In this document: positions 14,282 through 49,052 of the stretch, piece after piece
How positions within the stretch are numbered: position 1 is the stretch's first letter
How the letters are laid out: every line of letters begins with the position of its first letter
Assembly: GCA_023485845.1 (NCBI GenBank)
Contig: JAMCZE010000004.1
Span: 1,358-65,357 of the forward strand
DNA: 64,000 nt
Origin: Patescibacteria group bacterium
GTDB lineage: Bacteria > Patescibacteriota > Microgenomatia > JAMCZE01
Direction of reading: 5' to 3'
Made by a program: the position numbers and the translations under genes
The notes under the pieces: generated by a model
What the model was told of the DNA's origin: nothing
Seen by the model: only the letters and a program-made list of their open reading frames with translations
Databases searched by the model: none

Positions 14282-15517
14282 ATGATTGTTGTTATTTTAG
14301 TTATCGGCTTTCTTTTTCGGTTAATTAATCTCAACCAGTCGCTTTGGTTGGATGAGGCTATCAGCGTCTTGGCCGTTAAGAATAATTCTTTCTGGCAACT
14401 GGTTACCCAATTTGCTCCGGGGGATTTTCACCCGCCGCTTTATTATTTAATTCTTAAATTTTGGGATAGCTTTTTTGGCTACGGAGAAATTTCCAGCCGA
14501 TTTCTCTCGGTGGTTTTTGGCACCATGGCCGTTGCCTTCGTTTATTTGATTGGCAAGAGACTTTTTAGCAAGAAAGTTGGTCTAGTTGCCGCGCTCTTTC
14601 TGTCCGTGAACCCGCTGGCGGTTTACTATTCCCAGGAAGCCCGGATGTATGCTTTGGTCATGCTGGCAGTCACGGCGGCAGTGTATTTTTTTGTCAGCAA
14701 ACGTCGCTGGTGGTTTACTTTGGCTTTTCTGGTTGCTCTCTACGCCGATTATCTTCCCTGGCTGTTAATCCCGGTTTTTCTTCCGGACAGTCTCTTGGTT
14801 TTAGCCTTTACCCTGCCCTGGCTGCCGTTTCTTTGGGGACAGCTGCGAATCGGGACGGCCGTTAACCCCGCCTGGGCGCAAATTCTGGGACAATTCAGCC
14901 TTAAAGCGGTTCTGTTGGTGCCGGTTAAATTCATTTTTGGCCGCATCCCCACCCAGATTATTTTTTCTATTCCCGTCTTGGTATATTTTTGGCTCATGCA
15001 CCGCGTTAGGAATAAATTGCTTTGGGCTTGGCTGTTGGCGCCATTGATTCTTGGGTTAATTATCTCCCTGAAGATTCCCGTCTTTAGCTATTTTCGGTTT
15101 CTGTTTGTTTTGCCGGCTTTTATTTTGTTGTTGGCAGCCGGAACCCAGAAGCATCGTTGGGCCGTGCCGTTGGTGGTGACGGTGAGCGTGGTTTGCCTAG
15201 TGGTTTTTAATTTTGACTCGCGGTTTTGGCGGGAAGACTGGAGGGGGGCGGTGGCTTATATGAAAGGGGAGTTGGGGATTGTTTTGATGCCCAGCCTGGC
15301 CCAAGATGCCCCGATTAGATATTACAACCCGGCCCAACCGGTTTTTGACCGAAGCGATCTGGTTCTGAGCGGCCAGTCACCGGTGTATTTGTTGCGTTAT
15401 GTTCAGGAAATTTTTGACCCCCAGGACCAGGAAAGGACGGCCCTGGAATCTGCCGGCTATAAAAAAACCAGTGAAAAAGATTTCAACGGCGTGGTAATCT
15501 GGAAGTATCAACAATGA
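14282..15517 (+). CDS. GT39/ArnT-like membrane glycosyltransferase
   Basis: LWLDEA motif after the first TM helix (signature of the PMT/ArnT family), TM-rich. The track ORF starts at TTG 14252; the first ATG (MIVVILVIGF) was chosen. Confidence 0.7.
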   Translation: MIVVILVIGFLFRLINLNQSLWLDEAISVLAVKNNSFWQLVTQFAPGDFHPPLYYLILKFWDSFFGYGEISSRFLSVVFGTMAVAFVYLIGKRLFSKKVGLVAALFLSVNPLAVYYSQEARMYALVMLAVTAAVYFFVSKRRWWFTLAFLVALYADYLPWLLIPVFLPDSLLVLAFTLPWLPFLWGQLRIGTAVNPAWAQILGQFSLKAVLLVPVKFIFGRIPTQIIFSIPVLVYFWLMHRVRNKLLWAWLLAPLILGLIISLKIPVFSYFRFLFVLPAFILLLAAGTQKHRWAVPLVVTVSVVCLVVFNFDSRFWREDWRGAVAYMKGELGIVLMPSLAQDAPIRYYNPAQPVFDRSDLVLSGQSPVYLLRYVQEIFDPQDQERTALESAGYKKTSEKDFNGVVIWKYQQ

Positions 15518-16542
15518 AGATCGGTATTGACATTAGCCAAGTTGCTTATCCCGGAACCGGGGTGGCCACCTACACCAAAAATTTGGTGGAAAATCTGCTG
15601 CAAATTGATAAAAAAAATAACTATGTCCTTTTTGCCGGAACACTGCGCCAGCGAAAAATCTTCAACCTGTCAGGGTGGAACCCTGACATCTGGCCGCTAC
15701 CGCCGACCGTTCTAGATTTTTTGTGGAACCGGCTTCATGTGCTGCCGGTGGAGAATTTGATCGGCAACGTTGACGTGTTTCACTCCAGTGACTGGACCAT
15801 GCCGCCGACGAAAGCAAAGAAAGTGACGACCATCTTCGACATGGTTGTCTATAAATATCCCCAAACGTCACATCCCAAAATTATTGCTACTCAAAAACGG
15901 CGGTTGGCCTGGGTCAAGAAAGAAGCGGACGCGATCATCACCATTTCCGAAGCTTCCAAAAAAGACATTGTGGAAATTTTAGGAGTGGCTCCGGAGAAAG
16001 TTAAAGTCATTTATCTGGCGGCGGGAGAGGAATTTAAGCCGGCTGGACCGAAGTTTTCCCATCCCAAACCTTATCTCTTGGCAGTGGGGACTCAGGAGCC
16101 GCGAAAAAATCTTGTTAATCTGATTGCGGCTTACAAAAAGTTGTCAACAAAAGATTTGGATTTAATCATTGTGGGGAAACATGGTTGGGGGCAAGACGCT
16201 CCTGTTGCTGGGGTCATTAATCTTGGCTACGTTGCCCCGGGAAAGCTGCCTGATCTTTATCGCGGGGCAAAATGTTTTGTTTACCCCAGTCTTTATGAGG
16301 GTTTTGGGGTGCCGGTTCTGGAAGCCATGGCTTGCGGTTGTCCGGTGGTCACCTCCAATGTCGGCAGTTTGCCGGAAGTGGGCGGGGACGGTGCCACTTA
16401 TGTTGACCCGCTTAATGTTACCGATATAGCGGATAAACTTGCTCATGTTAAAAGAACCGGCAGAGAGATGGCTCAGGCTAAAAAGTTTTCTTGGGAAAAG
16501 ACCGCCCGGGAAACCCTGAAAGTTTATGAAGCACTGGCTTAG
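15514..16542 (+). CDS. GT4 glycosyltransferase
   Basis: MKIGIDISQVAYPGTGVATY..., [28 protein letters not shown]; ATGA overlap. Confidence 0.8.
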   Translation: MKIGIDISQVAYPGTGVATYTKNLVENLLQIDKKNNYVLFAGTLRQRKIFNLSGWNPDIWPLPPTVLDFLWNRLHVLPVENLIGNVDVFHSSDWTMPPTKAKKVTTIFDMVVYKYPQTSHPKIIATQKRRLAWVKKEADAIITISEASKKDIVEILGVAPEKVKVIYLAAGEEFKPAGPKFSHPKPYLLAVGTQEPRKNLVNLIAAYKKLSTKDLDLIIVGKHGWGQDAPVAGVINLGYVAPGKLPDLYRGAKCFVYPSLYEGFGVPVLEAMACGCPVVTSNVGSLPEVGGDGATYVDPLNVTDIADKLAHVKRTGREMAQAKKFSWEKTARETLKVYEALA

Positions 16543-17557
16543 TGTTTTGCCGATTATTCTGCTGACGGCATTTGTTTACCGCGCCTCTTTTACTGCCCCG
16601 TTTTTTCAGGATGACAAAATTCTTCTTAATTTGGCAACCGGCGGTAATCTCTTTGCCCCGATTCCTAATTTTCCCTACCGTCCGATTTCTCAGGCCCTGT
16701 TCTATAAAATTTGTTTTTTCTTTTTTGGCTTAAACCCACTTGGCTATCATTTGGCGCTATTTGCTTTCTTTGTCGGCACCGTGATTTTAGTTTTTTTGCT
16801 GGCGCAGCGATTTTTGGATTCTTGGACGCGGGCTTGGTTGGTTGCTTTTTTTTATGCCCTTAATGTTTCTCTGTTTGCTAACTTTTTCTGGATTGCCACT
16901 TCTTATTTCTCAATCGGGGGCTTCTTCTTTTTCCTGACGATTTGGCTCTATTTCCAGAAAAATGCTTGGCCGGCTTTGGTCTCTTTTATTCTGGCATTGG
17001 GAAGTAATGAAATTGCTTTTGTTCTGCCGTTAATTCTGATTATTGCCAGCTGGTTTCAGAACTACTGGCCAAAAAAGTTAGGTTTGTTTGTGGGCTTGCT
17101 CCCAATTTTTTTGGGGTTACGTCTTCTAGTTGGTTTGCCAACGGCCGGTGACTATTCTGTCGGCCTTAATTTTTTGTCCCCGCTGCGCTGGTATAGTTTG
17201 CGGGCCTTTAATCTTCCTGAAGGGGTAGATCGGGCCGGGCCGGTTTTTTATTTATTGTTTGTCGCTTTGCTAGCGATGTTATTGGTTTCTCTTAAGAATC
17301 GTCGATTGCTAATTTTTGGAGCCGGCTTCTTTTTGGTTGGGGCCCTGCCCTTTTTCTTCCTTCCGGCTCACATGTCGTCATACTATTTAACGATTGCTCT
17401 TTTTGGACCGGCATTGATCTTCGGTGGCCTGGTGCGGGCAAAGTTAGTGTCACTTTTTGTCGGTGTTTATTTGCTACTGACTATTTTTGGATTGGATTTT
17501 CTCTCTCGCACCCACTGGATTATTCTCAAAAACACTGGTCCCATCGGCCAATTCTAG
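16526..17557 (+). CDS. Polytopic membrane protein, putative GT-C glycosyltransferase
   Basis: 343 aa, TM-rich; 3' end overlaps the convergent minus-strand gene by 84 nt. Confidence 0.55.
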   Translation: MKHWLSVLPIILLTAFVYRASFTAPFFQDDKILLNLATGGNLFAPIPNFPYRPISQALFYKICFFFFGLNPLGYHLALFAFFVGTVILVFLLAQRFLDSWTRAWLVAFFYALNVSLFANFFWIATSYFSIGGFFFFLTIWLYFQKNAWPALVSFILALGSNEIAFVLPLILIIASWFQNYWPKKLGLFVGLLPIFLGLRLLVGLPTAGDYSVGLNFLSPLRWYSLRAFNLPEGVDRAGPVFYLLFVALLAMLLVSLKNRRLLIFGAGFFLVGALPFFFLPAHMSSYYLTIALFGPALIFGGLVRAKLVSLFVGVYLLLTIFGLDFLSRTHWIILKNTGPIGQF

Positions 17558-18739
17558 AATTTGGCGGTAGTTGGCCGCAATATACGCTTCTAAATATTTT
17601 GGCTGATAACAAATGCCTTTTGATTGCTGGCAGGGATTATAAACAATAAAGCGGGGCAGTCGGTCCTTCAACCCGGTAAGAATTCTCTCCTGATTGCTGG
17701 GGTAATCCATCGTCCAAGGAGTGGAGGGAACGAAAAAATCACTGGCCGGCAAAGTGTTTGTTAAGAAATAAAGGTGGTCCCAGGTGTTTATGATCAGGAT
17801 CTTTTCTCCGGCAGGAACTACTTTTTGGATTTGCGAAGCGATATCCAGGGTGGCCGGGTCCATAAAGCGAACCGGGAGATTATGGCTAGTAATCACCAGC
17901 CGCAGGAAGATGATTAGCATAGGAAGATAGAAAATAAAGGCGAGGGGTAAAGAAGTAAATAACATGGCGACCAAAGGCAAGGCCGGTTGGAGATGAAAAT
18001 ATTCAAACCGGGTGAAAATTCCCAGGGCAGCACCAATGGCCAGAAGTCCTAATTGACGTTGTTTCTTAAGCAAAAGGGCAAAAAATGCCGGAGCCATGAC
18101 CGATAGAGTAATTAGCGACTGGCTAATGGTCGGCCATTGGATTTGTAGGGGATAACGGGCGTGGAAAGTCAGAGTGTATTTAACGGCGCTGTCAAAAAGG
18201 GGTGGCCAGGCAAGAACTAGCAAGGCTGGCAGGATGCCAAGGACCATGGTGGGGCGGCGGTGAAAAAGAAGAAAAATGACAATAAAATAGATAGCCGTCT
18301 GCTTAGTTAAAAACGCCAGTCCCAAAATTACTCCGGCTATAAGGAATTTTTTGTTTTGGGTGGCAAGTATGGCGGCTAGAAATAGCGGGGCTAGCAGTTG
18401 GTCCACCCAAGCCCCGTTGCCGCCGAAAAGAATTTGTAAAGGGACATAAATTAAGACCGGCAGGAGCTTTTTTCCAGCCGTCAGCCATAATAATAAATCA
18501 GTGATAATTACGATTGCATAGGAAAAAATTCGCAGTGATAGAACAGAGATGCCGGTAAAGGAGTAGAAAGTGCTTAACAGTTTCCAATAAAGCGGGGTGT
18601 AGATTAAGAAGATGTTTTGGTAATATTCAAAACCGTGGAGATTAAGATAAGGCCAGACCAAATTCTCCGGCCAGGCTGTAAACTGAAGTTGGGAAAGGAG
18701 TACAATGTGAATGACAATGAGAAAGAAGATCTTCTTCAT
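17474..18739 (-). CDS. Polytopic membrane protein, putative GT-C glycosyltransferase
   Basis: 421 aa, TM-rich with a C-terminal soluble region; the only minus-strand gene within the + strand cluster; ATG at 18739. Confidence 0.6.
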   Translation of the reverse strand: MKKIFFLIVIHIVLLSQLQFTAWPENLVWPYLNLHGFEYYQNIFLIYTPLYWKLLSTFYSFTGISVLSLRIFSYAIVIITDLLLWLTAGKKLLPVLIYVPLQILFGGNGAWVDQLLAPLFLAAILATQNKKFLIAGVILGLAFLTKQTAIYFIVIFLLFHRRPTMVLGILPALLVLAWPPLFDSAVKYTLTFHARYPLQIQWPTISQSLITLSVMAPAFFALLLKKQRQLGLLAIGAALGIFTRFEYFHLQPALPLVAMLFTSLPLAFIFYLPMLIIFLRLVITSHNLPVRFMDPATLDIASQIQKVVPAGEKILIINTWDHLYFLTNTLPASDFFVPSTPWTMDYPSNQERILTGLKDRLPRFIVYNPCQQSKGICYQPKYLEAYIAANYRQILELADGTSVFENNPVGAREKIQSKNSQ

Positions 18740-19838
18740 TTTTTTGATTCTTCTATTATCTTTAGCACTTCGGCTCTACCGCTTCAATGATTTGTCGTCT
18801 TTTGGTTTTGACCAGGCACGGGATGCGGGAATTGAACGGCAGATGATTCTTACCGGCAAGCCGACATTGTTGGGTCCGCAGACGCTAATCGGCGATAAAA
18901 CCATCTATTTTGGGCCGTGGCACTATTATTTAATGGCCCCGGCGTTATGGCTGGCACATTTTGATCCTGTCGGTCCGGATTTATGGACTGTAGTTCTCGG
19001 GGTGGCCACCACGGCCGTTATTTTTGCCATCTCTGGCAGTGCTCTGGCAGCGCTTTTTTACGCAGTTTTTCCCCTAGCAGTGATTTATAACCGTTTTGCC
19101 TGGAATCCGAACACGGTTCCCCTTTTTTGTGCCTTAGCATTGCTTTTTTTTAGCCGGAAGCGCGATTTTTTGGCCGGTTTGTTCTTCGGACTAGCGGTCC
19201 AGCTGCATCCGACGGCCCTGCTCTTGGTTTTGTTTTTTTTGCGCCGATTCCGATGGCCGATTATTCTTGGTGCTTTGGTGGGCTTAAGTCCAATTATTGT
19301 TTTTGATTTTCGCCACCAGTTCCTTTATCTCCATGGTTATCTCAGCCTCTTCTCGGCTAATTGGGCCTATCGGGGATTCAACTGGCACTATTTCCTGTGG
19401 CTTTTGCCGGGATTATCTCTTTGGGTTGGTTCACTCAAGCCAAAACTGGCAGCCATAATAATTTTTTTGGCTTTTGCCGGGACGGTATTTTATTTAGCAT
19501 CCCAGCCGGCAGTTTTTGCCACTAGTCCGGCAACAATCAAGAAAGTAAGCAGCCTGATTGTCTCCGATCAAGATAATTCGGCGCTGCCATTTGATGTGGC
19601 CTCATTTTCTGACGCTGACACTCGGGCCACTGCCTATCGTTATTTTTTGGATCTGGCCGGCCTGACACCGTTGGGCGTTGGCGAATATTCGGTGGCTGAC
19701 CACATTTATGTCACCAGTTTTGCCGGACCAGAAAATGTTCTCTATAATAAGACTTACGAAGTGGCGTCGTTTTCACCGAAAAAAATTATCCGGATCGGGC
19801 AGGAGGGTAATTTATTTTTGTACCGGTTAGAAAAATAA
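18711..19838 (+). CDS. Polytopic membrane protein, ArnT/GT39-like N-terminus (LRLYRFNDLSSFGFDQARD)
   Basis: 375 aa, TM-rich; its N-terminus resembles the C-terminal domain of the 22060 gene. Its 5' end overlaps the divergent gene by 29 nt. Confidence 0.6.
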   Translation: MTMRKKIFFIFLILLLSLALRLYRFNDLSSFGFDQARDAGIERQMILTGKPTLLGPQTLIGDKTIYFGPWHYYLMAPALWLAHFDPVGPDLWTVVLGVATTAVIFAISGSALAALFYAVFPLAVIYNRFAWNPNTVPLFCALALLFFSRKRDFLAGLFFGLAVQLHPTALLLVLFFLRRFRWPIILGALVGLSPIIVFDFRHQFLYLHGYLSLFSANWAYRGFNWHYFLWLLPGLSLWVGSLKPKLAAIIIFLAFAGTVFYLASQPAVFATSPATIKKVSSLIVSDQDNSALPFDVASFSDADTRATAYRYFLDLAGLTPLGVGEYSVADHIYVTSFAGPENVLYNKTYEVASFSPKKIIRIGQEGNLFLYRLEK

Positions 19839-19839
19839 T

Positions 19840-20880
19840 ATGCAAATCGGCATTAATGGATTTGAAGCGAACGTAGCCCATCGGGTGGGGGCGGGTCAGT
19901 ATGCTTACGAACTCCTCCGGCATCTGCCCCGATCTCGGGTTTATTTGCCCTCTGCTCCTTTGGCCGACATGCCGGCGATGGACTACAAGATTGTTCCCGG
20001 AAACAAACTATGGACGTTAACCAGTTTGCAAAAGCAACTGCTTCTGGACCGTGATCTGGACGTTTTTTTCACTCCTGGCCACTACGCGCCCTTGTTTGTA
20101 CCAGTGCCCTCGGTGATTGCTATCATGGATTTGGCTTTTGAGAAATTCCCCCAATTTTTTAAGAAGAGCGACCTTTACCAGCTGAAATATTGGACGCGTT
20201 ATTGTGCCGGCCAGGCAAAAAAAATCCTGACGATTTCCGAGTCGACAAAAAAGGATATTTGCGAAATCTACGGTCAGCCGTCGGACAAAGTTGTGGTCGC
20301 CTATCCCGGCTATGATAAAAAGCGTTTTAATTCAAAGGTTAAGCCAAGCAAAAAATATGGTGATTATCTCTTATTTTTAGGCACTCTTCAGCCGCGCAAA
20401 AACATCGAGCGATTAATCGAGGCCTTCTATCAGCTACCAGGTTCAAGCTTAAAGCTTGTCATCGTGGGAATGCGCGACGAAGGCCGCGGCGGGTGGCTAA
20501 ACGACAAAATCCGGGCATCAGATCGGGTTATCCTGACCGGTTATCTGCCGGATGACCAACTGCCGGGTTTGTATGCCGGAGCGAAGGCTTATGTTTTGCC
20601 CAGCCTTTATGAGGGTTTTGGCATCCCGGTGCTGGAAGCGATGGCTTGTGGCACGCCGGTGCTTGTCTCCCGGGTTTCCTCTTTGCCGGAGGCTTGCGAA
20701 GAAGCGGCGATTTATATAGAGGATCCTTATCGTGTGGATTCAATTAGGGCCGGGTTGGAAGAAGTTTTGGCCGTCGGCGATAAAAAAGTTAAACTAGGTT
20801 TAGAACAAGTAAAACGGTATAATTGGGAAGATACCGCTAAAAAGACGCTGGAGGTGCTTTATGAAGTGGCTAAAAAATAA
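19840..20880 (+). CDS. GT4 glycosyltransferase
   Basis: [14 protein letters not shown]..., [28 protein letters not shown]. Confidence 0.8.
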
Positions 20881-21475
20881 ATACGGGAAAGAACTGAGCC
20901 TAAAACAGGCCTGGCCGAAAATTGTCAGGCGACTTTATAATTATTGGCTTGACTGGTGTTTGATGTGGCTATACTGGATCGGTGAAGTGCCAAGCCACAA
21001 TTTTCGGCGTTTCTTTTACACTTCGGCCGGAATGAGAATTGGCCGTGGCAGCGTTATTCACACCTACGCCAGGTTTTATCAACCAAAGGGAATTTCAGTT
21101 GGCGAGGACACGATTATCGGGGATCACGTTTTCCTCGATGGCCGGTCCCCGCTTAAAATTGGTAGCCATGTTGATATTGCCTCGTCTGTGATGATCTACA
21201 ACAGTGAACACAATTCTGAAGCAGTGGATTTTTCTGATCCGGAAAACGTTGTGGAGGAACCGGTTTCAATCGGGGATTATGTTTTTATTGGGCCGCGGGC
21301 GATTATTTTGCCCGGGGTGAAAATCGGTCGGGGAGCGATTGTCGCCGCCGGCGCGGTGGTCACCAAGGACGTTCCCGATTTTGCCATTGTCGGTGGCGTC
21401 CCGGCCAATGTGATCGGACAGCGCAAAGTTAAAGATTTGCATTATCGTTTAGGAAGAGCGCGTCTGTTTCAATGA
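20861..21475 (+). CDS. Hexapeptide-repeat (LbH) O-acetyltransferase, WcaF/WbbJ-like
   Basis: IGDHVFLDG...[11 protein letters not shown]...[31 protein letters not shown] hexapeptide repeats. Confidence 0.8.
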
Positions 21476-43132: not shown

Positions 43133-43456
43133 TACGCGGTCTATGTATTGAGACAACGCTTGAAGACTTTCATCGGAGGTCAGTTTCCATCTTTCTCCTT
43201 CTTCGATTGCGTTTCTGACACAGTGCTCTCTATATATTTTTTCTAGCTCTTCCTCATTAAGTCCATGGCTAACCAGTTGTGAGAAAACAATAATTTGGGC
43301 AATAGGGATTATCTCTTGAATGCCATTGCCCTTAAGTATTGCAACAAAATCTGGATGCATAGTTATCCTCCGAAGCTTTGCCAAGTCCACATAGGTTTTG
43401 TCTTTAAAACCTTCTTGGGCCCACTTTCGGGCAACTTCAATCGAGAAAGTGTTCAT
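43112..43456 (-). CDS. Hypothetical protein on the opposite strand inside the dcw cluster
   Basis: 114 aa, ATG at 43456, overlaps the Mur ligase stop by 21 nt, ends ...RVSRSISH. Confidence 0.4.
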   Translation of the reverse strand: MNTFSIEVARKWAQEGFKDKTYVDLAKLRRITMHPDFVAILKGNGIQEIIPIAQIIVFSQLVSHGLNEEELEKIYREHCVRNAIEEGERWKLTSDESLQALSQYIDRVSRSISH

Positions 43457-43493
43457 GATGGCCGCATTCTAGCATAAATGATAAAATAGGGGT

Positions 43494-44705
43494 ATGAAGA
43501 CGGCCATTTTAGGCTGGGGGGTGGACACACAGGACGTGGAGCCGTATTTGCGAAAGCGGGGAGACGAGGTTACGGTCTTGGATGAGAAAAACGGTGATAA
43601 ATTTGCTAATCTTCAAAGATTTGATTTGATTATAAGAAGTCCGGGAGTCTACCGTTTCCGGCCGGAGATTCTCCAAGCACAAAAAGCCGGGGTGGAAATT
43701 TCTTCCAAAACAAAACTCTTTTTTGATCTTTGTCCTTGTCCGATTATCGGCATCACCGGGACCAAGGGCAAAGGCACCACCGCTACTTTAATTTATGAAA
43801 TTCTCAAAGCGGCTGGTAAAAAAGTTTATTTAGGCGGCAACATTGGCACGGGAGTGTTCAATCTATTAGAAAATTTAACCAAGGACAGTTGGGTAATTTT
43901 AGAGCTATCCAGTTTTCAATTAATCGACCTAACAAAATCGCCGCATATCGCTGTGGTGTTGATAGTCACCAGTGAGCACCTTAACTGGCACAAAAACACC
44001 AAAGAATATATTGATGCCAAGAGAAACATAGTTTCTCACCAAAAACCGGATGATTTTGCCGTGGTAAACCGGGATTATCCCAACTCGGTGGTCATCGGCA
44101 AAGCCGCCACCGGCCAGGTCACTTGGGTCAGTGGAAAAGACATCAATCTGTCCACCCGTCTTCGCGGGCAGCATAATAAAGAAAATATTGCTGCCGCCGT
44201 GGCAGTGGCCAAAATCGTTGGCGTTGCCTATGAAGAAGTGGTCAAAGACTTTAGGGGTTTGGAGCACCGGCTGGAAGAGGTGGCCACGATTAACGGGGTT
44301 GCATTCTTTAATGATTCTTTTTCCACTGTTCCGGAAACCACGATTGCTGCCATCAAGTCGTTTGTCGAGCCGGAAATTTTGATCGTTGGCGGCAGCAGCA
44401 AAAATTCCGATTTCACCCAGTTAGGGACAGTCATCTCCCGAACACCCAACATTAAAGCGGTGATGCCAATTGGTGTTGAGGGTGAGCGGATTAAAAAACT
44501 TCTTTCTGGAGTAAAAATTTTGCCAGCAGGGAAAACAATGGCGGAAATAGTGAAAATAGCGTATAATAACGCTGTGTCTGGTGATGTTGTTTTGCTTTCT
44601 CCTGCCTGCGCCAGTTTTGATATGTTTAAAAACTACAAGCATAGGGGAAAACAGTTCAAACACGAAATTCAAAATTTAAAGGTCAAAAGTCAAAAATCCA
44701 AGTAA
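43494..44705 (+). CDS. murD: UDP-N-acetylmuramoylalanine--D-glutamate ligase MurD
   Basis: GITGTKGKGTT, GGNIG motifs; 403 aa. Confidence 0.85.
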   Translation: MKTAILGWGVDTQDVEPYLRKRGDEVTVLDEKNGDKFANLQRFDLIIRSPGVYRFRPEILQAQKAGVEISSKTKLFFDLCPCPIIGITGTKGKGTTATLIYEILKAAGKKVYLGGNIGTGVFNLLENLTKDSWVILELSSFQLIDLTKSPHIAVVLIVTSEHLNWHKNTKEYIDAKRNIVSHQKPDDFAVVNRDYPNSVVIGKAATGQVTWVSGKDINLSTRLRGQHNKENIAAAVAVAKIVGVAYEEVVKDFRGLEHRLEEVATINGVAFFNDSFSTVPETTIAAIKSFVEPEILIVGGSSKNSDFTQLGTVISRTPNIKAVMPIGVEGERIKKLLSGVKILPAGKTMAEIVKIAYNNAVSGDVVLLSPACASFDMFKNYKHRGKQFKHEIQNLKVKSQKSK

Positions 44706-46555: not shown

Positions 46556-46770
46556 TGGCGTCTTTTAAACCAAAAGAAGTGGTGCGAATTCTGGAGAAAC
46601 TTGGTTTTGTTGCCAAGCGCCAAACCGGCAGTCATCTTATTATGTCTCACCCCAGCAAACATAAAATTATTCCCGTTCCCGTTCATAGCAAAGACATTAA
46701 ATCCGGTTTGATGAAGGGGATTATCAAGCAGGCGGATTCCACAGAGCAAGAATTCTTGAAGCTTAAATAA
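46555..46770 (+). CDS. hicA: HicA-family toxin (YcfA-like mRNA interferase)
   Basis: KPKEVVRILEKLGFVAKRQTGSHLIMSHP...IPVPVHSKDIKSGLMKGIIKQA; start overlaps the hicB stop (TAATG). Confidence 0.75.
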   Translation: MASFKPKEVVRILEKLGFVAKRQTGSHLIMSHPSKHKIIPVPVHSKDIKSGLMKGIIKQADSTEQEFLKLK

Positions 46771-47710
46771 TCTTCACTTCCGGCTCGAGGGGGATGGCGT
46801 AGTGAGATTGGATGTCGGCGGACATTTTTTGGGTGAACTCCAAAATTTCCTGACCGGTGGCGCCGCCAAGATTAATGACAATTAGGGCATGTTTGTCATG
46901 GGTGGCAACCCGGCCGATTCTTTTGCCTTTCCACCCCAGCTCGTCTAATAGCCGCCCGGCGGGGACTTTAACCAAGCCATCTTTTGTCGGAAACGTTTGC
47001 AGTTCGGCAATTTTTTTTTGCAGTTCGGCAGCTTTTTGCGCCGTGACGGTGGGATTTTTAAAGAAACTGCCGGCGGTGGCCACCTCTTTCCAGTCCGGAA
47101 GTTTATCCTGGCGAATCTTAATAATCGCTTCAGCCACGATTTTTGGCGTTAGTCTGCCCTCCGGCAGATAGTTTTTTAATGATTCATAACGGGATTGATA
47201 GTCGGTGGAGAAATGCGCCGTCTTAAATAATTTGAAGGTGACACAGGTGATTATCTGTTTATTTTTTTTAAACACACTTTCCCGGTAGGCAAACTGGCAT
47301 TGCTGATTGGAAAATGTTTTCCCTGGGGTTTTAACTTCGGTGATGACATCGGCCACTGATTGTCCGTAGGCGCCGATGTTGCCCACGGCGGCGGCCCCGA
47401 CCGTCCCGGGGATATAGGCAAGGTCCTCAATTCCCGACCAGCCGTTTTCAACGCTCCACATCACAAACTCGTGCCAATTTTCGCCCGAGCCCAGCTCCAG
47501 TATGACCGAATCCGAATCTTGCGCAATGATATCTCGTCCTTTAATTTCGTTTTTGACTACCAAACCGTGGATGTCGCGGGTTAACAAAACGTTAGCCCCT
47601 TCGCCCAGAACCAACTGCGGAGGTTCGCTGATGTCCTTTTCAAGATGGGCCACCAGAAATCTGTCGGCGTTGACAGAGACCTTAAAGGTGTTATAAGGAG
47701 CAAGATCCAC
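46763..47710 (-). CDS. murB: UDP-N-acetylenolpyruvoylglucosamine reductase MurB
   Basis: FAD-binding and MurB C-terminal motifs (AYIPGTVGAAAVGNIGAYG); GTG start. Confidence 0.85.
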   Translation of the reverse strand: MDLAPYNTFKVSVNADRFLVAHLEKDISEPPQLVLGEGANVLLTRDIHGLVVKNEIKGRDIIAQDSDSVILELGSGENWHEFVMWSVENGWSGIEDLAYIPGTVGAAAVGNIGAYGQSVADVITEVKTPGKTFSNQQCQFAYRESVFKKNKQIITCVTFKLFKTAHFSTDYQSRYESLKNYLPEGRLTPKIVAEAIIKIRQDKLPDWKEVATAGSFFKNPTVTAQKAAELQKKIAELQTFPTKDGLVKVPAGRLLDELGWKGKRIGRVATHDKHALIVINLGGATGQEILEFTQKMSADIQSHYAIPLEPEVKII

Positions 47711-47726
47711 GAAAGTATTATATACT

Positions 47727-49052
47727 ATGCGAGTGACTAAATACGTGGTAACCGGGGGAACGCCGCTTCGGGGTGAGGTTCACCTTCATGGAGCTAAAAA
47801 TGCGGGCTTTAAGGCCATGATTGCCTCGCTTTTGGCCGATTCGCCCTCAACCATTTGCGATCTTGGTCTCATTTCGGAAATAGACTTTGCTAAGCAGGTG
47901 ATCACCCAGCTTGGCGGCAAAATAACACCCCAATCCAACCCCCATTGTCTAGAAATTGATCCAACAAATCTAAATTCTTTTTCGGTTGCTAAGGAAATAG
48001 GGGAAAAGTCAAGAGCGTCTAATTTATATGCACCTTCACTATTACATAGGTTCGGAAAGGTTTCATTGCCAGTCCCCGGTGGCGATCAAATTGGAAGGCG
48101 GCCTCTGGAGCGCCACTTTGCAGGACTAGAAGCAATGGGTGCGAAAATAACAATTGCACAGAATGAAATTAGAATAGAGACACCAAATGGCTTGACGGGC
48201 ACGAATTTCCATTTTGCTAAGAATACCCACACCGGTACAGAATTTCTTGTTATGGCAGCTGCTTGGGCTAAGGGAGAAACCATTCTTAGTAATGCTGCTG
48301 CCGAGCCAGAGGTTGATGACCTGATTAAATTTTTAAACTCTATGGGTGGCAATATTAAAAGAGTGGCGGAGAGGACAATCAGAATCTTTGGCGTTGAGCA
48401 CTTTCATGGTGCAAAGCATACAGTAATGCGAGATAGGAATGAGGCCGTTACTTTTGCTTGCGCTTCCCTGGTGACCAATGGGGACATTAAAATCATTGGT
48501 GCCGACCCGACGGTTTTGCAAATCTTGTTGCAAAAGGTTGAAGAAGCCGGTGGAAGGTATGAGATAGGTGAGAACTTTATTCAATTTAGCTTGAAAGGGG
48601 CCCTGAAGCCGACAAAAATCGTTGCCACGCCTTATCCAGGGTTCATGACCGATTGGCAGCCTCTTTGGTCAACAATAATGACACAGGCAGATGGCGAATC
48701 AATTGTTCATGAAACGATTTACGAAAAAAGATTCGATTATGTTCCGAACCTGATCAAAATGGGCGCGAAGATAGATTTTTTTGAACCGGACATTAAAAAC
48801 CCAGATGAAATCTATAATTTCAATTTATCTGATGACACCCACGGAAATAAACACGCAATCAAGATTTATGGGAAGACGTCACTCAAAGGAGTTGAAGTGG
48901 AAATAAGCGATATTCGCAGCGGGGCCACGGCGCTATTGGCGGGAGTGACCGCAGACGGCCAAACAACAGTCATTGATCCCAAGGATCAGATCAAGCGCGG
49001 GTATGAATGTCTCCCCGAGCAACTTGTTTCTCTTGGCGCAAAGATAATATAA
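47727..49052 (+). CDS. murA: UDP-N-acetylglucosamine 1-carboxyvinyltransferase MurA
   Basis: VTGGTPLRGEVHLHGAKNAGFKAM... Confidence 0.9.
   Translation: MRVTKYVVTGGTPLRGEVHLHGAKNAGFKAMIASLLADSPSTICDLGLISEIDFAKQVITQLGGKITPQSNPHCLEIDPTNLNSFSVAKEIGEKSRASNLYAPSLLHRFGKVSLPVPGGDQIGRRPLERHFAGLEAMGAKITIAQNEIRIETPNGLTGTNFHFAKNTHTGTEFLVMAAAWAKGETILSNAAAEPEVDDLIKFLNSMGGNIKRVAERTIRIFGVEHFHGAKHTVMRDRNEAVTFACASLVTNGDIKIIGADPTVLQILLQKVEEAGGRYEIGENFIQFSLKGALKPTKIVATPYPGFMTDWQPLWSTIMTQADGESIVHETIYEKRFDYVPNLIKMGAKIDFFEPDIKNPDEIYNFNLSDDTHGNKHAIKIYGKTSLKGVEVEISDIRSGATALLAGVTADGQTTVIDPKDQIKRGYECLPEQLVSLGAKII

Follow-up and report, generated by a model that had tools for sequence, protein, structure and literature searches.

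Do two divergent genes for membrane proteins share their first codons on opposite strands, and if so, from where is each of them expressed? The question arose from a contig of an uncultured Patescibacteria (CPR) bacterium (JAMCZE010000004.1, assembly GCA_023485845.1), of which we analyzed a stretch of 64,000 nt, hereafter the window. The open reading frame listing of the window contains a minus-strand frame, gene A, that starts at ATG 18739 and reads MKKIFFLIVIH..., and a plus-strand frame, gene B, that starts at ATG 18711, reads MTMRKKIFF... and has a further in-frame ATG at 18717. An earlier reading made from the sequence alone (the sequence-only reading) had described a 29-nt overlap of the two 5´ ends and, within it, a perfect 14-bp palindrome that encodes K-K-I-F-F on each strand. 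Both descriptions were correct, the overlap being 23 nt when counted from ATG 18717 (Table 1). Both frames are real genes, comparative evidence places each start inside the other coding sequence, and the overlap is conserved. From comparisons with related loci, all in metagenome assemblies, we conclude that the overlap is genuine and maintained in evolution, and that it joins two GT-C membrane glycosyltransferase genes of a surface-glycan cluster.

Table 1. Coordinates of the genes, overlaps and candidate signals at the A/B locus (positions in the window).
Feature	Position	Strand	Description
Gene C	16526..17557	+	343-aa membrane protein, same glycan cluster
A/C tail-to-tail coding overlap	17474..17557	both	84 nt
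Gene A	17474..18739	-	421-aa GT-C-fold membrane glycosyltransferase, PMT_2/GT39-like (predicted)
AAGGAG, SD-like	18695..18700	+	10 nt before ATG 18711, 16 nt before ATG 18717; antisense of invariant A Leu14-Leu15 (CTC CTT)
TACAAT, -10-like hexamer for B	18701..18706	+	10 nt upstream of ATG 18717; antisense of A Ile12-Val13 (ATT GTA)
Gene B	18717..19838	+	373-aa GT-C-fold membrane glycosyltransferase, ArnT/PMT-like (predicted)
A/B head-to-head coding overlap	18717..18739	both	23 nt; 29 nt when counted from ATG 18711
Perfect 14-bp palindrome AAGAAGATCTTCTT	18723..18736	both	K-K-I-F-F on each strand; lineage-specific
AAGAAT, weak -10-like for A	18747..18752	-	7 nt upstream of the ATG of A, inside B TM1 codons; without TG
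TGCTAAAGATAAT	18755..18767	-	contains GATAAT, alternative -10-like, 15 nt before the ATG of A

A and B are GT-C glycosyltransferases of a packed glycan cluster

Structural models indicate that the assignment of A and B to the GT-C superfamily is real. In Foldseek comparisons, both show a multi-spanning fold in which TM1 is followed by an extracytoplasmic loop, with a probability of 1.00 and TM-scores (query) of 0.5-0.6; the matches of A are ALG12, STT3, ALG9, DPY19, PglB and AftB, and B matches ArnT (5f15) best, followed by ALG12 and Pmt1/2/4. Gene A (MCL4389949.1, recorded at NCBI as 'glycosyltransferase family 39'; 75 homologs) matches Pfam PMT_2 (PF13231) with an E value of 1.3e-5 and 25.9 bits, against a gathering cut-off of 26.1. 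Gene B (MCL4389948.1, annotated from 18717; 40 homologs) has no match to PMT_2 itself, and 11 of 27 members of its family do (best E 3.5e-13). H11, L14, L15, W23, P24 and E25 of A are invariant across homologs, the acidic E25 lying in the W23-P24-E25 motif of the first loop after TM1; in the first loop of B, D32 is invariant and E33, R35 and D36 are nearly so. Going by GT-C enzymes in general, we take these acidic residues to have a putative catalytic role. The two proteins are not close paralogs, as BLASTP aligned only 33 residues (best E 0.054), and A is the only copy of the A-type gene (A´) in the window.

Gene A is the sole inverted gene of a 33-kb co-directional glycan cluster (786-33601), that is, the only minus-strand gene in this interval that is not nested in a longer plus-strand ORF. 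It overlaps both neighbors, with no non-coding DNA on either side, in a cluster whose co-directional genes are themselves packed with overlaps of 4-20 nt. Its 3´ overlap with C is conserved in relatives (57-84 nt), and the A and C tails are derived extensions, each antisense to the ancestral conserved end of the other. C and B are adjacent, C coming first and overlapping B by 4 nt, in relatives without an inverted A between them, and in those with the fully co-directional order A´-C-B nothing lies between C and B. Known RNA families and tRNAs were not found in the window.

The overlap and its codon phase are conserved

A head-to-head overlap with an intact partner was found in 10 of 18 distinct related loci, and two further loci (L004, L010) carry remnants of B instead of an intact gene; since the loci are phylogenetically related, these counts are not counts of independent events. 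The A proteins of the overlapping loci are mostly 40-55% identical, and the orientation of A is the same in 18/18. The overlaps range from 17 to 113 nt and involve two kinds of partner, B-type and GT4-type genes, but the phase is identical in all 12 overlapping loci, the difference between the starts being 1 modulo 3. In four more loci the divergent genes are just 0, 17, 20 and 34 nt apart, and a locus fetched after the rule had been formulated (L043) has the full architecture. The recurrence of one codon phase in 10 loci of deep divergence, and in the two B-remnant loci, puts the overlap itself beyond chance.

The shared phase is 123:213, in which wobble positions coincide and each ATG is read as Ile in TM1 of the partner. 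Codons that have T in the middle (Phe, Leu, Val, Ile) face codons whose first letter is A (Lys, Arg, Asn, Thr, Ile, Met), pairing Lys with Phe or Leu and Ile with Ile or Met, and making M-K-K-I-F-F self-complementary. As a consequence of this pairing, the positive tail and hydrophobic helix of one signal anchor mirror those of the other. Antisense stops in hydrophobic stretches occur at 1.0 per 100 codons in 123:213 compared with 4.75 and 3.2 in the other phases, and we suggest that the overlap is tolerated because stops are rare in this phase and ATG is read as Ile. The same phase is the most frequent and preferred one among divergent overlaps (59% of 331 cases; PMC2174442). If confirmed, this would provide a code-based reason why the N-termini of membrane proteins can be placed head to head at almost no cost.

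Candidate promoter elements lie within the codons of the opposite gene

The sequence-only reading had pointed out that the promoter of each gene must lie inside the other gene, and it is there that we located candidate -10 and Shine-Dalgarno (SD) elements. We note that our promoter calls use an E. coli-like -10 consensus, which may not be that of this uncultured phylum. For B, TAnAAT is found at the place of the -10 in 14 of 18 A-clade loci, including 10/10 with an intact overlapping partner, 7-10 nt upstream of the partner start (16 nt in one locus). It is encoded by His-Ile-(Leu/Val/Ile) of A, and the conservation is at the nucleotide level: the third residue varies between L, V and I, but its codon is always NTA. 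The corresponding background frequencies are 0.31, 0.14 and 0.15, with 0.05 for GTA given Val in the window; TM-helix codons read antisense are rich in A/T, and composition alone yields TAnAAT there at 2.5 per kb. The motif is missing from this place in both loci with a co-directional upstream gene (L039, L042), in two loci with a non-overlapping partner (L005, L015) and in all five distant-clade loci in which its place could be located. The correlation with the partner is imperfect, as L040 and L044 have TAnAAT although 30-50 nt separate it from the partner start, and a strict 12/12 association with an abutting partner was weakened by the B-remnant loci L004 and L010, which have the motif, and by L044, which has TAAAAT with a 17-nt spacer.

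We also considered the SD-like AAGGAG as the main conserved signal for B. GGAG at this place is limited to four loci (the window, L001, L041 and L043) compared with 14 for TAnAAT, and we therefore prefer the -10 reading, though AAGGAG could still serve a read-through mRNA in the window. It could even be that B is translated only from read-through operon mRNA by way of this site and has no promoter of its own. A candidate -35 element, (G/A)TAAA(C/T), 17 nt upstream of TACAAT and antisense of the conserved Q-F-T codons of A, was discarded as a poor match to TTGACA.

For A, an extended -10-like sequence, TGCTA(A/C)AAT (TGCTAMAAT; background 0.18 per kb), lies 7 nt before the start in six loci (L001, L004, L010, L011, L037 and L043), at the position of AAGAAT in the window, and falls in intergenic sequence in L005 and L044, two loci that no longer have B. 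The TGCTAA within TGCTAAAGATAAT looks like a relic of this clade-wide element displaced by 12 nt, since alignment of the window with L011 and L043 suggests that removal of AGATAATAGAAG would restore TGCTAAAAT-N7-ATG.

Throughout the window, TAnAAT-to-start spacing peaks at 6-7 nt while control motifs are flat, suggesting a general signature of leaderless starts in this genome. Many genes of the window have spacing of this type, as does A in the six relatives (N7); the window copy of A has only AAGAAT at N7 or GATAAT at N15, and that of B has TACAAT at N10. Two canonical minimal divergent pairs, putatively leaderless, are also present in the window, at 47710/47727 and 43456/43494. A generic sigma-70 scan of 17300-19200 returned one plus-strand site (18260-18288) and none on the minus strand, fewer than in shuffles; the scan requires a -35 element, which the apparent promoters of this genome lack.

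A crossing promoter pair is the preferred reading

We consider the locus best explained, with a probability of roughly 0.7, by a zero-spacer pair of crossing promoters on a real and maintained overlap, an arrangement similar to a noncontiguous operon; from the motifs and their spacing we infer promoter function, leaderless starts and mutual interference. The genome would make wide use of leaderless or near-leaderless mRNAs, transcribed from -10 elements that precede the start codon by 6-10 nt. The -10 of B (TACAAT) would be written in the His-Ile-Val codons of A, and that of A in the TM1 codons of B, as TGCTAMAAT in relatives and in a form degraded to AAGAAT or GATAAT in the window. The start sites of A and B would then cross, the transcripts would be complementary over at least ~23 nt, and polymerase footprints at the two starts could not coexist. 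Complementarity would be expected at both ends because the coding sequences themselves overlap there, and read-through of the plus-strand array would put A in antisense orientation to the operon mRNA, the situation of a noncontiguous operon. As a likely consequence, A on one side and B with its downstream genes on the other would be expressed in mutual antagonism. A stronger version, which we put forward tentatively and regard as possible rather than probable, is that crossing leaderless promoters are deliberately encoded in both TM1s as a mutually exclusive or ratio-setting switch, with the inverted gene on one side and the other genes of the surface-glycan operon on the other; the locus would then be a 'coding-only' noncontiguous operon. 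Since signal-anchor N-termini are self-complementary in 123:213, streamlined CPR genomes might use such a design generally.

The strongest competitor is that compaction was neutral: the overlap would be real, as the end-point of spacer loss, but the -10-like motifs would reflect composition, and A and B would neither interfere nor be coupled. The dense packing of the whole cluster fits this explanation, as do the 3´ overlap with C, since mutual tail extension is a standard neutral route, the variable overlap length among loci and the short spacers in four of them. Nevertheless, we think this explanation unlikely. TGCTAMAAT is held at exactly N7 in six loci despite saturating divergence, the ATT-NTA codon pair is retained while the amino acid changes, the motifs are lost along with the divergent partner, and a normal-sized divergent intergenic region is found in 0/16 loci with such a partner.

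The palindrome is probably a by-product of dual coding

Comparison with orthologous loci, which the sequence-only reading had proposed, did not reveal conservation of the palindrome; in the nine other overlaps examined, the longest perfect palindromes are 4-8 bp. Seven palindromes of at least 14 bp occur in the window compared with 5.1 +/- 2.3 in first-order Markov simulations. We also enumerated all 23-nt overlaps that encode, on each strand, Met followed by two or more K/R within three residues and then by four hydrophobic residues, doing so exhaustively instead of by random sampling, which had accepted 92 of 6 million sequences. A palindrome of at least 14 bp is present in 0.96% of these dual-coding overlaps, and a rough estimate for unconstrained sequence is ~0.06%; such a palindrome can arise because K-K-I-F-F is self-dual in phase 123:213. 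When the 23-nt overlap and the 5´ end of each putative mRNA were folded, z values were between -0.2 and +0.7, with no significant RNA structure attributable to the palindrome. Together with its restriction to one lineage, these results suggest that the palindrome is probably an incidental by-product without demonstrated function and, although it triggered the finding, of little importance in itself.

Could the palindrome instead be the footprint of a rearrangement (that of a small local inversion or duplication had been proposed), either as the junction of an inversion or insertion of A or as the product of hairpin-templated (quasi-palindrome) mutation? A is inverted and relocated relative to the A´-C-B order of relatives, the apparent 12-nt insertion upstream of its start relative to L011 and L043 would mean that the junction was remodeled in the window lineage, and dual coding already yields a quasi-palindrome that could serve as substrate for templated 'perfection'. 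We find this origin improbable, however, because the inversion is ancient, being common to loci that are 40-55% identical, none of which has the palindrome, and a junction trace is not expected to outlast such divergence only here. In addition, no long inverted repeat lies around or flanking A (21-nt arms about the center are 71% complementary) and no recombinase was found among the six flanking genes scanned with Pfam. A and B are also not duplicates, and an inverted duplication of a paralog was rejected on this ground and for want of a long inverted repeat. An invertible (phase-variable) segment was likewise rejected, as no inverted repeat links 17474 and 18739 and these six genes include no recombinase.

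The other proposal, an operator at which a dimeric regulator would bind AAGAAGATCTTCTT and control both genes at once, had in its favor the position of a perfect dyad just downstream of both putative start sites and the rarity of dyads of this length, about 1% of admissible dual-coding sequences. We give it very little credence: the dyad is missing from every orthologous overlap, 14-bp palindromes occur at the chance rate in the window, two copies of a self-dual peptide explain the sequence fully, and the six Pfam-scanned flanking genes (15514-21475) encode glycosyltransferases, membrane proteins and an acetyltransferase, none of them regulator-like.

Both proteins require the overlapping codons

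The sequence-only reading had also allowed for a mis-called start. In that case, B might begin at TTG 18744 or A further downstream, such that there would be no coding overlap and the palindrome would lie in a short untranslated region. A Logan gene call (P0076, 364 aa) does begin B at TTG 18744, and no SD site precedes ATG 18739 of A. Truncation of one partner in this and other calls (P0087, 335 aa; P0019, 370 aa) can be attributed to the gene callers, however, since Prodigal forbids 5´-5´ overlaps by rule (PMC2848648); the NCBI PGAP annotation contains the A/B overlap, and the same overlap recurs at 10 further loci, in which the partner is intact or is a remnant of B. B homologs in co-directional loci, which are free of the conflict, have 16 residues before R-x-Y-R, compared with 18 in the window B from ATG 18717 and 9 from TTG 18744. 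The proposed check of ATG 18717 against homolog N-termini thus identified it as the better B start, ATG 18711 adding only Met-Thr, and left A and B with a 23-nt overlap. For A, all alternative starts fall downstream of the invariant H11, L14 and L15, and no canonical start other than ATG 18739 precedes these residues. AF2 models confidently place helices at residues 2-20 of B (pLDDT 93) and 2-17 of A (TM1; pLDDT 83.9), which makes codons of the overlap necessary for the first transmembrane helix of either protein, and a mis-called start is hardly credible. Of the two outcomes that had been named as speaking against the overlap, then, absence of palindrome conservation was observed, whereas homologs do not support a start well downstream for either gene.

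If confirmed, A and B would represent a well-supported and long-conserved divergent coding overlap, from a class usually written off as annotation error, and would illustrate that full initiation signals (-10, SD and start codon) can be embedded in the coding sequence of a neighbor in a leaderless-reliant genome. The ban on 5´-5´ overlaps has truncated one partner in several public assemblies and removed a TM helix from the predicted protein. Callers with this rule would systematically hide such a design, and a survey of CPR genomes could show how common it is.

Comparison with known systems

The A/B arrangement is a variant of a known but rare kind. Like other prokaryotic divergent (5´-5´) overlaps, it shares first codons on opposite strands in phase 123:213. 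Divergent overlaps are the rarest class (2 of 663 overlapping pairs in E. coli; PMC2716372), and an origin by relocation of starts or stops, the standard model for overlaps (PMC2716372, PMC4161906), fits A and B. In contrast to the known cases, often dismissed as mis-annotation, this overlap is kept across lineages that are 40-55% identical and with two partner genes. The shared DNA encodes TM1 signal anchors, and the candidate -10 and SD elements of each gene lie within codons of the other.

Symmetric bidirectional promoters have divergent transcription start sites 7-25 bp apart around overlapping -10 elements (Warman et al., 10.1101/2020.01.31.928960). The likeness is that minimal promoters driven by a -10 element, putative in the case of A and B, occupy both strands within a few tens of bp, but the geometry of A and B is reversed: the candidate -10 elements (18701-06 on the plus strand, 18747-52 on the minus strand) are outside and the starts inside, such that the transcripts would cross face to face, which sets the pair apart from this type. 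The 47710(-)/47727(+) pair does fit it, with TATAAT/ATTATA in a 16-nt spacer.

A classic convergent pair is pR/pL of coliphage 186. Systems of this kind possess dedicated repressors, and their spacers are longer and either non-coding or partly coding. For A and B, the start sites that we propose are separated by only ~23-27 bp and fall within the coding sequences of two proteins. At convergent (face-to-face) promoters, which fire toward each other and show transcriptional interference, occupancy or passage by one polymerase excludes the other (PMC5001618, PMC6593788), as would be expected for the proposed A/B pair.

The noncontiguous operon (S. aureus menE-menC/MW1733) and divergent or convergent excludons resemble the locus in that one gene stands opposite an operon-like array and is complementary to the transcripts of its neighbors at both ends. 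Genes in those systems are described as repressing each other through transcriptional interference and RNase III (PMC11034616, PMC12288877). Their overlaps are RNA-mapped and lie in untranslated regions, whereas A, known from sequence alone, overlaps its neighbors within coding sequence at both ends, by 23-29 nt at the 5´ end and 84 nt at the 3´ end.

Two genuine genes with overlapping 5´ ends

The divergent genes A (17474-18739, minus strand) and B (ending at 19838, plus strand), both encoding GT-C membrane glycosyltransferases, have ORFs with 29 nt in common, or 23 nt if B is counted from its second in-frame ATG. The overlapping starts, together with a perfect palindrome through which both proteins acquire K-K-I-F-F, were described in the sequence-only reading and were confirmed from the sequence.

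Coordinates of the A/B overlap and of related candidate signals
Feature	Position	Strand	Details
Gene B start	ATG 18711, second in-frame ATG 18717	plus	opens MTMRKKIFFIFLILLLSLALRLYRF...
Gene A start	ATG 18739	minus	opens MKKIFFLIVIHIVLLSQLQFTAWPE...
Perfect 14-bp palindrome AAGAAGATCTTCTT	18723-18736		K-K-I-F-F encoded on either strand
Candidate -10 of B, TACAAT	18701-06	plus	10 nt 5´ of ATG 18717
AAGGAG	18695-18700	plus	antisense of A Leu14-Leu15; 10 nt 5´ of ATG 18711
Candidate -10 of A, degraded	AAGAAT 18747-52 at N7, or GATAAT at N15	minus	
Apparent insertion in B TM1	18755-18767		12 nt (4 codons)
Terminator-like hairpin GGCCGGAGAATTTGGTCTGGCC and T-rich run	18651-18672	minus	~70-90 nt past A start
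Candidate extended -10 TGCTAGAAT	43456/43494 spacer	minus	9 nt 5´ of its ATG
Candidate extended -10 TGATAAAAT	43456/43494 spacer	plus	6 nt 5´ of ATG 43494

The 421-aa A protein matches Pfam PMT_2 slightly below the cut-off and has 75 homologs; NCBI names it a GT39-family protein (Patescibacteria MAG), and its AlphaFold model (pLDDT 83.9) gave GT-C matches to ALG12, STT3, ALG9, DPY19 and PglB. For B, no Pfam match was found with the window protein, PMT_2 is matched by 11 of the 27 family members, and the model (pLDDT 93) matches ArnT, ALG12 and PMTs.

One explanation offered for the overlap was a mis-called start. Residues H11, L14, L15, W23, P24 and E25 of A are invariant in 13 orthologs, no canonical start other than ATG 18739 lies 5´ of them, and in nearly all relatives the start falls exactly 10 residues ahead of the His. 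Homologs of B from loci without an overlap conflict have 16 residues ahead of R-x-Y-R, compared with 18, 20 and 9 in the window for ATG 18717, ATG 18711 and TTG 18744, respectively, and the A and B models each have a confident helix starting at residue 2. These N-terminal lengths, invariant residues and helices leave a mis-called start unsupported. The alternative start at ATG 18717 fits the homologs to within two residues, but the overlap persists at 23 nt, as in the NCBI annotation (B from 18717, A from 18739). A and B are both real genes, both requiring the shared codons.

Shorter public calls exist at the window locus (364 and 331 aa) and elsewhere (P0087, P0019), as expected from callers that, like Prodigal, disallow 5´-5´ overlaps (PMC2848648). 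In the public automatic calls P0076, P0087 and P0019, one partner loses its first transmembrane helix (window 18744; L001 3879; L002 3071). Truncated partner calls are a systematic artefact of such callers.

Conservation and phase of the overlap

Genome, metagenome and Logan assemblies yielded 18 distinct A-clade loci for comparison, with A proteins that mostly share 40-55% identity. The overlap involves an intact B or B-like partner in the window (23/29 nt), L001 (23-44), L002 (26), L011 (26), L037 (17) and L043 (26); the GT4 gene normally 3´ of B in L006 (98-101), L013 (32-104), L014 (56-113) and L041 (23-104); and a decayed B remnant in L004 and L010. Only a short spacer separates A from its divergent partner in L040 (0 nt), L044 (17 nt), L005 (20 nt) and L015 (34 nt), and a co-directional gene lies upstream of A in L039 and L042. 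Modulo 3, the start difference is 1 for every one of the 12 overlaps, corresponding to phase 123:213, in which wobble positions coincide and position 1 is opposite position 2. This phase is reported as preferred among divergent overlaps (PMC2174442), the rarity of which is documented (PMC4161906).

The A genes of L014 and L015 are 97% identical overall, but their 5´ ends and divergent partners differ (GT4 with a long overlap in L014, B-like behind the spacer in L015), suggesting recombination or assembly chimerism exactly at the A 5´ junction.

Enumeration of the genetic code for phase 123:213 gave the pairings K with F/L, N with F/L, R with L/R, T with V, I/M with I/M, A with A and G with P. 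Antisense stops arise from His, Gln or Tyr codons only and, in the hydrophobic stretches of window genes, number 1.0 per 100 codons versus 4.75 and 3.2 in the other phases. By these pairings, a signal-anchor N-terminus (Met, basic, hydrophobic) is the reverse-complement image of another; each ATG is an Ile codon inside the partner's helix, and the self-mapping of K-K-I-F-F is the palindrome.

The palindrome itself is not statistically remarkable within the window, which holds 7 perfect palindromes of at least 14 bp against 5.1 ± 2.3 expected from Markov simulations. Under a rule demanding Met, at least two K/R within three residues and then four hydrophobic residues on both strands, 0.96% of the 222,208 enumerated 23-nt dual-coding overlaps contained a palindrome of at least 14 bp, making it likelier under this constraint, though not required. 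A shared operator, the second explanation offered, finds no support, given that perfect palindromes reach 4-8 bp at most in the nine other overlaps examined; RNA folding at the A/B overlap gave no structure signal. The palindrome, found only in the lineage with the remodelled 18755-18767 segment, may have arisen by chance or by templated "perfection" of a quasi-palindrome.

Candidate initiation signals within the partner's codons

The motif TAnAAT, antisense of A's His-Ile-(Leu/Val/Ile) (CAY ATT NTA), is present in 14 of 18 loci, among them every one of the 10 whose overlapping partner is intact. In nine of these 10 it lies 7 or 10 nt 5´ of the partner start, whichever gene the partner is, and in L037 it lies 16 nt away. 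The third residue of His-Ile-x varies while its codon remains NTA, against NTA backgrounds of 0.31 (Leu), 0.14 (Val) and 0.15 (Ile), GTA given Val being 0.05 in the window. TAnAAT is missing from L005, L015, all five distant-clade genes in which its position could be located and the two loci whose upstream gene runs in the direction of A; its absence from L042, one of these two, agrees with the rule's prediction. L043, added after the rule was set, has the complete architecture. The AAGGAG in A could be used by a read-through mRNA.

On the other strand, TGCTA(A/C)AAT, an extended -10 consensus, is positioned exactly 7 nt 5´ of the A start in L001, L004, L010, L011, L037 and L043, opposite the Ile-(Leu/Val)-Ala codons of B; the strand opposite such genes carries the motif at a background of 0.18 per kb. 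Where B is gone (L005, L044), the motif is kept in the short spacer, 10 and 8 nt from the A start. The window carries 12 extra nt 5´ of the A start relative to L011 and L043, and dropping AGATAATAGAAG would, we infer, give back TGCTAAAAT-N7-ATG. These extra nt, an apparent insertion in B's TM1, would split the clade's TGCTAAAAT motif. The candidate TGCTA(A/C)AAT and TAnAAT within partner codons support the earlier expectation that promoters of each gene would lie inside the other.

The B remnants, which run for 32 or 16 codons before a stop (L010 2-181, L004 2-100, minus), still span A's TGCTAMAAT motif and the A start, as if the piece bearing A's putative promoter had been retained after B decayed. 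Inside A, the hairpin GGCCGGAGAATTTGGTCTGGCC sits within the conserved W-P-E-N-L-V-W-P codons and may simply reflect repeated Trp-Pro codons.

Across the window, the spacing from TAnAAT to starts peaks at 6-7 nt, control motifs being flat, which suggests that leaderless or near-leaderless transcripts are in wide use in this Patescibacteria genome. TAnAAT is seen 5-9 nt 5´ of many starts (e.g. 34913, 42059, 43494, 55065, 55389 and 59278). The 16-nt spacer of the divergent pair 46763..47710 (minus) and 47727..49052 (plus) contains symmetric TATAAT/ATTATA, with the minus hexamer 6 nt from the GTG of the 47710 gene, and looks like a symmetric bidirectional promoter for two leaderless mRNAs ~17-18 bp apart. 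The 37-nt spacer of the divergent pair 43456/43494 (window 43454-43496) has two back-to-back extended -10 motifs.

Genomic context of A

Virtually all genes between 786 and 33601 are on the plus strand. A is the only minus ORF in this interval not nested within a longer plus ORF, and is surrounded by a tightly packed glycan cluster (GT4, GT-C, hexapeptide acyltransferase and a 1043-aa Wzy_C/PMT_2 protein). No tRNA genes or Rfam families were above threshold across the 64 kb window. The A tail overlaps that of gene C, which encodes a membrane protein of the same cluster, by 84 nt (17474-17557). Among relatives this overlap measures 57-84 nt, and its phase is 123:321 at the window, L001 and L037, the three loci compared. 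Alignments indicated that both tails are derived extensions (NTGPIGQF after ...THWIILK in C; F-x-N-N-P-V-G... in A), each reading antisense across the ancestral, conserved end of the partner and thus "conserved" through that partner only.

Relatives of B with 47-60% identity show the all-co-directional order A´-C-B-GT4-Hexapep, in which A´ is an A-type gene in forward orientation and C and B share 4 nt, with no gene between them. Given this order and A being the only A´-type gene in the window, A was relocated and inverted long ago in this clade. As marks of a switchable segment, neither inverted repeats at the borders of A nor a recombinase among the six flanking genes scanned with Pfam were found; with the inversion old and A unmarked by inverted repeats, the palindrome as a footprint of local inversion or duplication is unsupported.

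A head-to-head overlap with crossing candidate promoters

Overall, we read the locus, with a probability of roughly 0.7, as a conserved head-to-head overlap with embedded candidate initiation signals, and it is this phase-locked arrangement, rather than the palindrome, that is of interest. A leaderless crossing-promoter mechanism, to which the motif positions point, is somewhat less secure, being slightly favored. The A and B initiation regions would cross, with the -10 elements outside both start points, such that the transcripts would be complementary over at least ~23 nt and the polymerase footprints would overlap. Read-through of the plus array would render the entire A gene antisense to the operon mRNA. 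A would be expected to antagonize B along with the downstream genes, and to be antagonized by them in turn.

Divergent overlaps are a known but rare class, to which the A/B pair adds a variant. The proposed mechanism would act much as a noncontiguous operon or divergent excludon does (PMC12288877, PMC11034616), and also as face-to-face promoters do. In the bidirectional promoters with symmetric elements described by Warman et al., transcripts run apart, whereas those of A and B would cross.
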